Shown: positions 15,948 through 21,100 of the stretch, piece after piece
Layout: each line of letters begins with the position of its first letter
Numbering within the stretch: position 1 is the first letter of the stretch
Assembly (NCBI GenBank): GCA_964106915.2
Contig: OZ066914.1
Strand: one strand, 5' to 3'
DNA: 64,000 nt
Source: Podarcis gaigeae
Lineage: Eukaryota
Notes under the pieces: generated by a model
The model's input: the letters and a program-made list of their open reading frames with translations, nothing else
Database searches by the model: none
Told to the model about the DNA's origin: nothing
Program-made: the position numbers and the translations under genes

Positions 15948-17437
15948 GCTGTGGCACTGAGGCCTAACATACATGGACCTTGTTGCTACTGTCCATCTAA
16001 GTTGCAGGAGTCAAAGATCACAGACAATGTTTTTGGAACCACTGTTACTTTAGAAAAATCTTTCCACCAAATTTTCCATTTCACAACTTTTTCCACCGAC
16101 ATAACACTGGGGCTGGAGATATACATGATACAGGCCAAGCTGTAACAAAACAGTTTGGATGCACTTGTGACAGTGGGAATAATGACTAAGGCTACTGCTA
16201 AATCAGCACAATGGTGGCCTAACTGAAGTTTACCACTTTTCCATTACTCTGTAGCAGATTTTTTCCTCTTTTTTCAGCGTTAACATTCTAAATTGCATCA
16301 GAGACTTTATAAATGAACACATAAAAATGATTAAGTGGTAAAACTTTACAAACTTGGTTGAAAACAAGTGCAAAAAAACAGCCTACAAAATTAAAATGTA
16401 CAGTGGATAAATTCCTTTTCATGACATATTTCTTTTAGTCAGAAACCACAAGAATGTCCTTTCATAAGCCATCTAAGATGAAAATCAAAGAAGGTTGTTT
16501 TCTGTTTGGTTTTTTTTTTGGTTGTTTTTTTTTTGGTGGAGTGCTATAAAATTATCACTGACATTTCAATTTAAAAAAGAAAAGAACTATACGTAGAATA
16601 AATAGGACATTTCCCGTAACTGTCTGTAGTGGGTGCTCTGTCACTTCTTTGTAGAGTCTTAGTAAATTACACAAGTTCTCAGCTAGGCAGAGCAGCTATA
16701 ATTCATTGTCCCCAGTAATGTAATCTACATTTATCATTATTTTAATTAAACTAAATCTTTAATTTGCTATCTTCACTTCCAAGGAAATATACCTTGCTCT
16801 CTTTATCACCCTCACAGACAGCATGTGCTCTTAGAGTACATCAGAGCTTCCCTTTAAAAATATTTCTTCTTTTCTCTTCAGCTTGGAATGAGATACCAAC
16901 CACAAGATTTGTATTATGTATTACCGGTTCCCTTTTACTTGGGAGTAAGCACCACTGAGCATATCTGCATCATTAAGGCTTGATCTCATGCTTGCTACTT
17001 AAAGGTAGGCCCCACAGAGTTCGTTAGAGCTTAGACCAAAGTCAATGTGCATAGGGCTGTAGCTTCCATAGGTGTTTCAGAAAGTTCTGGCTATGTTCCT
17101 ATAATTTTAATGCCCCACAATATAAGCTATTTTGTCACAATTGCCTTACGATAGTTGCTGTCACAAACCTGGATGTGCATATTGGCTATCTTGATTTGGA
17201 TGTGCAAATCGATGGAGTGAAGGGGCACTTAGGGAAAGGAAGCAAGCTCTGTGTCACTAAGAGAAGGTCTGTTTATGTGACTTATGCTGCAACTGATATG
17301 AAAACAGACCATATATATCATCCTTAAATTGGTTCATACACAATGCTACATTTAGTTAATGTATTTCTCTTTCAAGGAAACTTGACTGCAGTCTAGTACA
17401 GTGGTACCTTGGGTTACATACGCTTCAGGTTACATAC

Positions 17438-18197
17438 TGTCAGGGGTTCAGAAGGAGAGACACAGGAGGGGGAGCAAATGGAGAGTGAGGAGGAAGAGTC
17501 CGAGGGGGGTGGAGGCAGTGACAGTGGAAAGAGTTACTCCACAAGCCTCTCCAGCGAATCGGAGGACTCACAGAAGGGAGCGCCAATGGCCAGAGCGAGG
17601 GGGGTTCCAGGGGGGAAGCCCCAGGAGGAAGGGGCTAGCGGGGAGTCCCTGAGCAGCAGTTGGAAGTCAGGACCAGCTTCCCCACCAGAGCGCAGTGGGG
17701 AGGGGGAGTCCCAGGAATCGGGACCAGTGTCCTCACCACCAGCGGGAGGAGAGGAGTCAGGTTTGGCCACGCCCACATCGGGAAGCGGGGAAACGGTCAG
17801 GAGGAAGGTTACCGGCTGGGCGCGCGCGCCAAGTTCAAATGTACAGGCGAGCGGCACAGCAGGGAGCCCGGGAAGGGAGCCAGGTCCTAAAGCCCGCCGG
17901 AAGGAAGGGCAGGACTCAGGGGGCTCAGCGTCAGAGGAGTCCAGGAAGGAGGAAACCCCAGAGGGCAGAAGGACCCAGCGAAGGAAAGAACAGCGCAGGA
18001 GGTGGAGCCGGGCTAGGATCTTAAACTGGTGTGGGAGGAGCAGTGAGTCAGAGGGGACTTAGCCGGTCTAGAGTCAAGACGTGGGGCGGCACGCCCAGAG
18101 CTTTGAAATGGAAACTAAACTTCAATAAAGACTTTTGTACATTACATCCACCGGGCGTTGGTCCTCTGTGAGCTGGGACCTAGAGGCAGTCCTGACA
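17438..18197 (+). mobile_element. Solo LTR (760 bp; probably Ty3/Gypsy or ERV), inserted in a MITE
   Basis: Termini TGTCAGG...CCTGACA (7-bp inverted repeat). 5-bp TSD CATAC at 17433-17437 and 18198-18202. GC box near 18082-18089; AATAAA at 18124-18129. The host MITE resumes exactly after it. Confidence 0.85.
17478..18062 (+). CDS. LTR-encoded ORF, 194 aa from ATG (frame open from LTR base 2); acidic / S-G-P-rich / Arg-rich protein of unknown function
   Basis: Stop-free for about 620 nt of the LTR: MESEEEESEGGGGSDS...EGRRTQRRKEQRRRWSRARILNW...stop, ending before the GC box and AATAAA. No known domain recognised. Confidence 0.5.
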   Translation: MESEEEESEGGGGSDSGKSYSTSLSSESEDSQKGAPMARARGVPGGKPQEEGASGESLSSSWKSGPASPPERSGEGESQESGPVSSPPAGGEESGLATPTSGSGETVRRKVTGWARAPSSNVQASGTAGSPGREPGPKARRKEGQDSGGSASEESRKEETPEGRRTQRRKEQRRRWSRARILNWCGRSSESEGT

Positions 18198-21100
18198 CAT
18201 ACGCTTCAGGTTACAGACTCCACTAACCCAGAAATATTACCTGGGGTTAAGAACTTTGCTTCAGGATGAGAACAGAAATCGTGCTCTGGCGGCAGCAGGA
18301 GGCCCCATTAGCTAAAGTGGAGCTTCAGGTTAAGAACAGTTTCAGGTTAAGAACGGACCTCCGGAATGAATTAAGTACTTAACCCGAGGTACCACTGTAC
18401 CCACTTCCATAAGAGTAAGCCATGGAGCTTACGCCTGGACTTCTAAGTAGCTTCTACAGTTTCTATTAAGTTATAGATGTTAGAAGTGGAGCTCACCCAT
18501 TCCTATTCCTAGCTGACCGAATCTATGTTTGTTAGCACATTGTGATTATCCTTGTACACACAATATGATTTCACTATCAGCATTTAATTTCTAGAAGCTC
18601 CCTGCTTCTGCCCTTAGAATAGTCTTGAGTAGCCACTAATGGTTATTCACGGTAAATAATTTACTTTAACAATGCAAGACTTGCGAAACACAAAAAGAAA
18701 CTTCAAACATTTTCCACAATTGCACTGAATCACAACCTTAAATCTACCCCCCTCCCAAAATAATACTTTTAAAAGCAACATAAATACAGATAAAACAAGA
18801 ATAAAATTGCAGGCATAGATTTTGCTAAATTTGACATAACTTGAGCTATGGTTTGGCTTTTGTAATGCAGTATCTTTTTCAACAGCCAGAACTAGGCATT
18901 TGATAAGGGAATGGGGGAGTTTAAAAGTACAGTTTGTGTGTGCTGCCACTACTCATACTCCATGAGTATTTAAGAGAACTGGATCCCTAAAAACGAGAGG
19001 GGCACACAAAGTGATCTCATCCGACCTACATGATTCCAAATAGGATTTCGTTATACCTTATGATCTTCTCAATGGATGTAGTAGTGCCCTCAGAAGACCG
19101 TATTATTCATTAAGTTCTCGTAATTAAGCAACACAAAAGGGAGTTTAATTACAATGATCTGTAAGTGCGGGAGACAATTCAATACAGTTGCACAATTATG
19201 TCCAAGTCTATGTGACATCAACCTTCATAGAGGTGAGTTATTAAGACTACACACATATAATTCCAGAGACATATTCTCAGCTAAGATGATGCTATGAAAC
19301 TCAAACTACATGATCTACCAAAACACGAATCACATGATCGGTCATGCCAGGGGTGACAACATTTTCCAGCCTGAGGGCTGCAATGATCCGTGGTTAACCT
19401 GGACTGTGTCTGATAAAAAGGTGTGGCCAAGCGGACATTTAAGAGTTTTGAAGGGGGTCATAAAAACCTTTTGACATTCCAGAATCACAGAAGGGGTTCC
19501 TTGGGAGTGCTAAAAAAAATTTTTAAAACTTTTTTGGAAAAAGAAATGATGGACAAATTGGGGAGGGGGCACAAAAAGTTTCTGACATAACAGCAAGGGA
19601 CAAGTCAGTTTAAAATGTAAAAATGTATTAAAAACCTTTCTTTTTTTAAAAAGACATTGGGGTTTTTTCAGGCGGCCTGCACAAAAAAAATCATCAGGGG
19701 TGGGTGGGTGGGTGGTCCATGATCCAACTAGCCCTGTCTTATGTACTGCATAACTTCATTTGCCTCTTTGTGGGAGAGCTGGCCGGTGACAGGCTCTAAC
19801 AAACCTGAACTTTTTATTTCTTTAAAGCTAAAGTTCCGACAGATATTACAAGAATGTGTGCGCTGTTCAAAGATTCCACCGACCAATTACTGATATAAGA
19901 GCAAATCTGAAAAAAATCAGAGAACGGCCTTTTGCTTTTCATAATTACTTTTCAGAAGGTAAAACAGCCGCCGAAAATCAAATCATTTATATGAAGAAAT
20001 AAGATTTTGACTAGGCTAAGGATACATCTAGCATCTTGCCTTTTCTGGCCCTGAATGTTGTTTAAAAGCTCCCAGCCCCGTGATACTGCAAACGGGCAGC
20101 CTACAGAGGGCAGTGTTGTATCAGCTTTGGAGCCTTCCTTGGGCTACAGTGGCATGAAAAAGGGAACTGTCAAAAATATCCAATCCACAGTGTACGGGAG
20201 GGGATGCAAATGTACTAAACCTAATACATTTGTAAGCCAAAAACACTGAAGCAAGGTTTCTGAAAGACAACTGGACTTGAGGTGGGGGGGGGGGGGTTTC
20301 GAGGAGAAGAAGAAACTTCACATAACAGACTGTCAGACTGAAAAAGCTACCGCAGTACGTACATATGGCATTTTCCTTTGTAGTTTGCCCAGTGAGAAAA
20401 GGTAACTAATCATAGCACTTCCTTATTCTTTGCAACGACAAAAAAAGCACCAGGTTACTGGAACCCGAGTTAATATCAGTATGAAGAACCAGCGTGAGCA
20501 GTTCTATCATTAGGAATAAGTACATTATCACTATATATTGGGGTGGTTTTTTTAAGGCCAATTCTATTTTTCAATCATGTGCAGGTTGGGCACTTCTACT
20601 AAGGAATGTAAAAATATAAAGCTCACATTTAAAAACAGTGCTAAAGACATGATTGAAAACAAACAATATTTTACAAAACATTACACCCAACATTTACTTC
20701 ATTTTCAACCTGCCCTTCATCAAACAAGTGATTCCTGCGTGGGTCACATCAAATATAAAGCAAGCTAACAATGCAATAATTGCAACAAAAACATTAAAAC
20801 AATTCCAATAAAACATTACATGGTGGTGTAAGGGTAATTATTATTTTAATAATTATTATTATGTATTTTGCTGATCAAGGTAGTGCAGAGATTTCATTTT
20901 TTGAAATAGTCATGTTTGAAAGATGCCAATGTAAAATCATTTTTTCTTTGACATGTGGACAAAATAGCAGCAGCTTTAGTGTACTTATTAGGAAACAGGA
21001 TGCCAGTTCTATACTCATAGAAAGCCACTGCCCCTCACCTGTAATTCAGTACATCATCACAAACACTGACATCCCATTTATTTCAATGGGACTGAAGCAT

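Follow-up and report, generated by a model that had tools for sequence, protein, structure and literature searches.

We propose that the open frame occupying most of a solo long terminal repeat (LTR) in the window, by which we mean the whole stretch of 64,000 nucleotides analyzed here, is the C-terminal tail of a Pol polyprotein that is read through U3, and that the arginine-rich end of this tail likely serves the integrase as a nuclear-import or chromatin-tethering signal. We place the probability of this combined reading at roughly 0.8, and the part of it that makes the LTR frame a tail of Pol is very probable. An LTR can be almost wholly protein-coding and under selection while it also provides the promoter, the self-primer and the end used in integration. 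As a short candidate signal by which vertebrate Ty3/gypsy integrases might enter the nucleus or choose sites, we point to the basic end of the frame.

The LTR is 760 bp long, begins with TGTCAGG, ends with CCTGACA and has CATAC on both flanks (Table 1), which bears out the TG...CA element with a 5-bp target-site duplication described in a first-pass annotation of this DNA, and 5-bp duplications also flank other copies of the family. It is a solo LTR, since no internal part of the element was found within the 64,000-nt window besides the LTR itself. Copies of its subfamily, A, are 99-100% alike among the best 40 scored of 3110 candidates from a first-look DNA search. The small DNA transposon split by the insertion, which we take to be of the Tc1/mariner type, carries a 16-base tandem duplication at the LTR insertion site. 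The GC box and AATAAA that had been noted after the frame are both present; the GC box (GGGGCGG, 18083-18089) is situated downstream of the inferred start site, and the related copy L066 lacks it.

Table 1. Features in and around the solo LTR, in window coordinates.
Feature	Position	Strand	Remark
Host element split by the LTR: small DNA transposon	17399..18397	.	terminal inverted repeats, TA on both sides
Left target-site duplication, CATAC	17433..17437	.	sequence read
Solo LTR, young Ty3/gypsy chromovirus family, subfamily A	17438..18197	+	
207-codon frame, in full-length copies the Pol/integrase C-terminal tail encoded by the 3' LTR	17439..18062	+	covers all U3
In-frame ATG	17478..17480	+	absent in subfamilies C2 and D
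Antisense frame, 174 codons	17534..18058	-	third codon positions common with the Pol frame
Arginine-rich motif	17967..18017	+	predicted to act in nuclear import or chromatin binding
TTAAA (TATA-like), 29 bases before the inferred start site, with the Trp codon 23 bases before it	18021..18029	+	promoter role inferred
12 bases complementary to the PBS of full-length copies: inferred self-primer, start of R	18050..18061	+	complementarity
AATAAA polyadenylation signal	18124..18129	+	
Right target-site duplication, CATAC	18198..18202	.	sequence read

The frame opens at the second base of the LTR and closes with a TAG at 18060-18062, giving 194 aa when counted from its ATG, and both this stop-free run and the polarity ascribed to its product had been described correctly: net charge is -11 over residues 1-50, about zero in the middle and +9 over residues 177-199, that is, an acidic head, a neutral Ser/Gly/Pro middle and a basic end. 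The arginine-rich 17-mer has 10 Arg or Lys in its 17 residues, which was matched by 7 of 10000 residue shuffles. No Pfam family was found in the 207-residue frame at an E value of 1, nor in an extended frame of 409 residues, and the 207 residues, of which four are leucine, hold no pattern match to a leucine-rich nuclear export signal. A search of solved structures with the Pol end gave nothing credible (a single match at E 0.61), and in a protein atlas the best score was 0.81, with Chromo clusters at 0.76-0.77, which are leads only. We read the 174-codon antisense frame as a shadow of the Pol frame.

Frame length by itself says little. The first-pass annotation had cautioned that G-rich, T-poor DNA has few stops by chance and had proposed a comparison with shuffled sequence, in which a plus-strand frame of at least 207 codons appears with a probability of 0.0044 (base shuffles) or 0.030 (dinucleotide shuffles), and one in any of the six frames with a probability of 0.10 or 0.053, respectively (5000 shuffles each). 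The frame is longer than those of most plus-strand shuffles, but judged from the single window copy its length is borderline and weak evidence against chance; hence the caveat was fair, and comparison across the family decides. A chance frame in the promoter DNA of a young family would fit the 3-10% of shuffles that yield such a frame and the more than 99% likeness of subfamily A copies, and it is the divergent subfamilies that speak to it.

From 152 LTR copies, most of them found by protein searches that favor intact frames, 12 clusters were formed, and the frame is intact in 134 of the 152. Among eight natural subfamily representatives that are 61-96% alike, dN/dS in the coding frame is 0.16-0.41 over 28 pairs, which share representatives and are not independent, while the same pairs give 1.05-3.73 in the +1 frame, 0.34-1.55 in the +2 frame, and 1.24-2.64 and 0.97-3.11 in two antisense frames; the antisense frame with common third positions gives 0.23-0.50, as expected. 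A codon model over 11 representatives gives 0.32; for the basic motif (23 codons) the value is 0.15. Where indels in U3 can be aligned, their net lengths are 3, 15 and 63, and single-base indels are found past the stop (the DNA alignments of A with D and of C with D are too fragmented for indel lengths). Purifying selection, frame-keeping indels and conservation of the arginine motif were points that the first-pass annotation had proposed to check, and each is borne out, the indels in the alignable part. In the single pair L066 and L225, dN/dS is 0.21 for U3, 0.22 for the internal acidic tail, 0.18 for integrase and 0.07 for RT-RH. The LTR frame is real coding sequence under purifying selection, and the excess of third-position changes, the low dN/dS down to 61% identity and the frame-keeping indels refute a chance origin, which is exceedingly improbable, unless the alignments are an artefact.

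The parent element was sought, as had also been suggested, in full-length copies with two LTRs. These are about 6.6 kb long, with a gag of 360-370 codons and a pol in the -1 frame that encodes protease, RT, RNase H, integrase and a Tf2-type SH3 domain; Gag matches Retrotrans_gag, DUF4939, Ty3_capsid and a zinc knuckle, the best solved relative is Ty3 Gag-Pol, and no env was found in the full-length copies examined. The family of the window LTR is thus that of a young Ty3/gypsy chromovirus that lacks env and whose primer-binding site (PBS) is of the self-priming type. This integrase lineage is presumably the one behind the PEG10/RTL-type genes, given the DUF4939 match, and the gag-pol overlap contains GGGAAAC (L031:2613-2619), which we take to be the same heptamer as the PEG10 frameshift site. 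After the integrase comes a chromodomain-like region that gives no Pfam Chromo match at E 0.01, aligns with PF00385-bearing relatives and lacks the three cage aromatics. Near 14.1 Mb on contig C31, close to the contig end, two loci (L033 and L034) hold nested and repeated insertions of A, B and C elements into each other.

The PBS of full-length copies is complementary over 12 bases to LTR position 613 and is not tRNA-like. In subfamilies A, B and D it starts with the splice-donor-like GTAAGT (L066:1293-1298), which is absent in the L146 family; GTAAGT is the splice-donor hexamer consensus. With PBS-LTR complementarity as the single basis, we infer that R and the RNA start at the self-priming site, window position 18050; the R-U5-PBS fold as a whole is not stronger than that of shuffles (z -1.6). 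A start at 18050 would make the whole frame U3 plus about 12 bases of R, present only at the 3' end of the RNA, and protein coding and the putative TATA-like promoter would overlap at 18021-18029. In four families the Trp codon precedes the self-priming site by exactly 23 bases (by 24 in D, where the match is shorter), and this fixed spacing suggests that part of the conservation of the basic motif may be that of promoter DNA. The Arg codons upstream of the Trp vary synonymously, so that conservation of the arginines is at the level of the protein.

These elements are closest in plan to the Tf1/sushi chromoviruses (Metaviridae; V-clade Amn-ichi and Sushi-ichi), which likewise have Gag followed by PR-RT-RH-IN-SH3, lack env and carry a PBS complementary to the LTR and not to a tRNA, the self-priming arrangement described in the available portions of PMC4600332 and PMC6317226. 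In contrast, Pol of the window family runs about 360 residues past its degenerate chromodomain-like region, through all U3, and its U3 is rich in G and A, unlike the Sushi LTR model, which is described as T-rich (PMC3601003, available text).

Evidence that the frame is a tail of Pol comes from intact full-length copies, in which Pol is one frame of 1525-1548 aa that passes from PR-RT-RH-IN through the chromodomain-like region, an acidic tail, a purine tract and all U3 and stops within the inferred start of R. The natural copy L066 has a single frame of 1528 aa from the protease to the U3 stop, and in subfamily D, whose LTR is 61% alike, a 1548-aa Pol runs through U3 in 6/6 copies, which were chosen for long frames; the earlier suggestion that the frame begins upstream of the 3' LTR thus proved right. 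Among 150 listed rows there are 56 frames of at least 1300 aa, 18 of them with 1525-1528 aa, 16 with 1385-1392, 13 with 1326-1336 and 9 of other lengths. A UniRef entry labelled Podarcis muralis (P0001) has the tail fused to Pol, and protein searches matched only UniRef entries with that label (two of the searches scored the best 8000 candidates).

The junction itself is variable in phase. In the first full-length copies read (L031 and L032) Pol ends 17 codons into the LTR in another frame, and of the 47 long Pol frames that fall into three phase classes 29 are out of frame; the classes go back to four G runs of the purine tract that vary in length. In a set of 30 loci picked by likeness of the pol tail to an out-of-frame copy, regardless of phase (L086-L115), 13 junctions are in frame and 17 are out of frame through scattered changes in G-run length, and the commonest form is in frame (11/30), each out-of-frame form occurring at most twice. 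A single dominant in-frame form is the pattern expected if in-frame elements amplify and out-of-frame ones originate singly, in individual copies. A larger count of 35/68 in frame is inflated, as it includes copies chosen for long frames, and the counts for subfamily A, that of the window (7/18 in frame, 11/18 out), and for subfamily C (0/9 in frame) tell against a clean in-frame picture. A single G7 run inside pol is off length in 3/16, fewer than at the junction tract, which holds four such runs. Relative to L066, short-read contigs of related DNA have no indel of at least 5% listed in the purine tract, and relative to the out-of-frame L095 they differ in G-run length, with the shorter-run form also present at a few percent; this is modest support, since the contigs are short. 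We also considered that all out-of-frame junctions are assembly errors, which is doubtful given that the G6/G7 runs of the L146 family are unchanged in 11/11 and that the shorter-run form is present in short-read contigs.

HIV Rev has an arginine-rich motif, and nef, MMTV sag and the foamy virus bel genes overlap U3. An accessory regulator of this kind, encoded in U3, was the reading of the first-pass annotation, and the window frame has in common with these systems an arginine-rich stretch and coding within U3. A separate gene might be expressed through a spliced transcript or through re-initiation, either at the ATG before the LTR or at 17478, or its product might be an RNA-binding regulator that the protease frees from Pol. 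It would account for a U3 frame that is still open although the majority of junctions put it out of phase with Pol, and for the strongest constraint falling on the arginine motif, and means of expressing it could be seen in the in-frame ATG five bases before the 3' LTR in subfamilies A-D and in the GTAAGT at the PBS. However, no single junction form is commoner than the in-frame fusion, which turns up in each of the tail-bearing families examined, while other tail-bearing families have GTG instead of ATG at the junction and lack GTAAGT. The LTR frame has no conserved start of its own, since the 17478 Met is lost in C2 and D and no Met occurs in the D LTR frame, and unlike Rev, nef, sag and bel it is in frame with Pol in an env-less element and has no export signal. 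That U3 codes for a protein under selection has therefore stood, but that this protein is the product of a separate gene is unlikely. As for the related idea that solo LTRs spread the regulator genome-wide, transcription is inferred to start downstream of the frame, which would then not be expressed from the LTR's own promoter; in a solo LTR it is likely a silent passenger. Hence open frames in solo LTRs of this chromovirus group should be annotated as Pol remnants and not as accessory genes.

The Pol-tail layout is not confined to the window family. Pfam-guided searches of this genome found more distant chromoviruses, which were placed in an RT tree of this genome's copies and three UniRef proteins only, and in families whose RT-RH is 55-71% alike Pol likewise enters U3 and closes with a basic motif. 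Those at 65-71% (L146/L147, L148, L149, L150 and L151) have G-(V)-D-V-R spanning the LTR start, with the GTG junction mentioned above, and continue Pol for 83-109 codons of the LTR, where it closes on a basic run plus L-x-C-W. Junctions in the L146 family are of identical length in 11/11, and its U3 differs from that of L147 by 7 synonymous and 13 replacement codons, which is weak constraint. The L146 family (L146:567-6051, contig C19) is very young, with LTRs that are 100% identical, and is probably active now; about 117 of its loci are among the hits listed, mostly with a 1331-aa Pol. A more distant family (L267-L270, RT-RH 55%) has an intact group I chromodomain and a Pol that continues 117 codons into U3 with acidic-to-basic polarity, and RRSARL stands at the basic end in 26/30 motif reads; RRSARL is absent from the window's family. 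We had considered the tail as a simple substitute for a lost chromodomain cage, but abandoned this since the L267 family keeps both an intact cage and a tail. The frames at L267:5862-6216 and in L239-L270 stop just before a TATA-like box.

A further possibility is that the Pol-encoded tail is mainly a spacer, which keeps the 3' untranslated region short and may shield the RNA from decay, its residues mattering little. The LTR part of the tail does differ in length, from some 83 to 232 codons, and its middle cannot be aligned between families, and Pol stops close to the inferred R start in each tail-bearing family, the window stop lying about 60 bases before AATAAA. Against this, dN/dS of about 0.3 along the frame and 0.15 in the motif argues that residues are kept and not merely openness, and at least one family (L155:5122-5600) has the ordinary layout, a useful comparator, in which Pol stops right after the chromodomain and before the purine tract. 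We consider a spacer very unlikely.

A tail of Pol with a functional basic end thus remains the preferred reading, and the following course is envisaged. RNA beginning at the self-priming site would carry U3 at its 3' end, Gag-Pol would be made by a -1 shift, and the protease would free an integrase in which the chromodomain-like region is followed by a disordered acidic tail of about 360 residues, whose basic end might bind importin and/or the nucleosome acidic patch, by analogy with the Ty1 integrase tail and the CR motif of plant CRM elements. Given a Pol tail, nuclear import or chromatin tethering is the role that we favor, with some reserve, for the arginine-rich end, and a nucleic-acid chaperone role for the tail is a weaker candidate. 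When the last 45 residues were modelled in complex with H2A-H2B of this genome, the score was 0.02, which is uninformative. On expression the sequencing runs are likewise uninformative: none listed as containing the sequence is an RNA run, and one whose RNA nature is guessed (X1) covers 15/30 bins and shows no joint.

Among cases studied in detail, Ty1 integrase comes nearest. In the parts of the sources that are available, it is described as having a disordered C-terminal domain with CK2 sites and a bipartite import signal at its end (PMC9673352), and a targeting segment in that domain (PMC10050235, PMC7459421). The window frame, with 7 CK2-type sites, is likened to this large disordered tail with a basic import signal by layout and not by sequence; Ty1 differs as a copia element with a tail before RT and outside the LTR. 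A comparable layout is that of group A of the plant CRM elements, defined in the available text of PMC3059260 and PMC3605345 by a Pol that continues into the 3' LTR, so that their CR motif is LTR-encoded. CRM elements use a tRNA-Met primer, whereas the window family is self-priming with a PBS that matches its own LTR, has a vertebrate host, keeps a chromodomain-like region upstream of the purine tract and extends Pol over all U3, and the two are likened by the Pol-into-LTR layout and not by CR-motif sequence or centromere location. This layout of plant centromeric elements is hence also present in several, probably active, lizard families. We found no description of Pol entering the 3' LTR in vertebrate chromoviruses, although subscription papers, Repbase or Dfam entries and supplements may hold one.

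RRSARL, the hexamer of the distant L267 family and not of the window's, is the core of the HMGN/Dsup nucleosome-binding (acidic-patch) motif RRSARLSA (PMC12487698, available portion), and may confer such binding there; for the arginine anchors by which viral proteins bind the acidic patch, see the review PMC9040877 (likewise available in part). As a tentative extension, vertebrate self-priming chromoviruses may have made their U3 promoter code for an integrase tail with an acidic-patch arginine anchor, a module convergent with the plant CR motif and exact to the HMGN motif in one family, whose variants could set the insertion sites of each family, for example chromosome ends or contig C32.

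The uneven spread of subfamilies A and B over chromosome ends and C32 fits targeting and may be retention. In counts of the top-ranked matches only, from which rows on small contigs were dropped, loci off C32 that lie within 1 Mb of contig ends number 16/43 for A and 16/78 for B, where about 2.6% is expected; crowding is weaker in D (8/91) and not seen in the L146 family (5/116). On C32, A (7/50), B (8/86) and D (26/117) are enriched and the L146 family is not.
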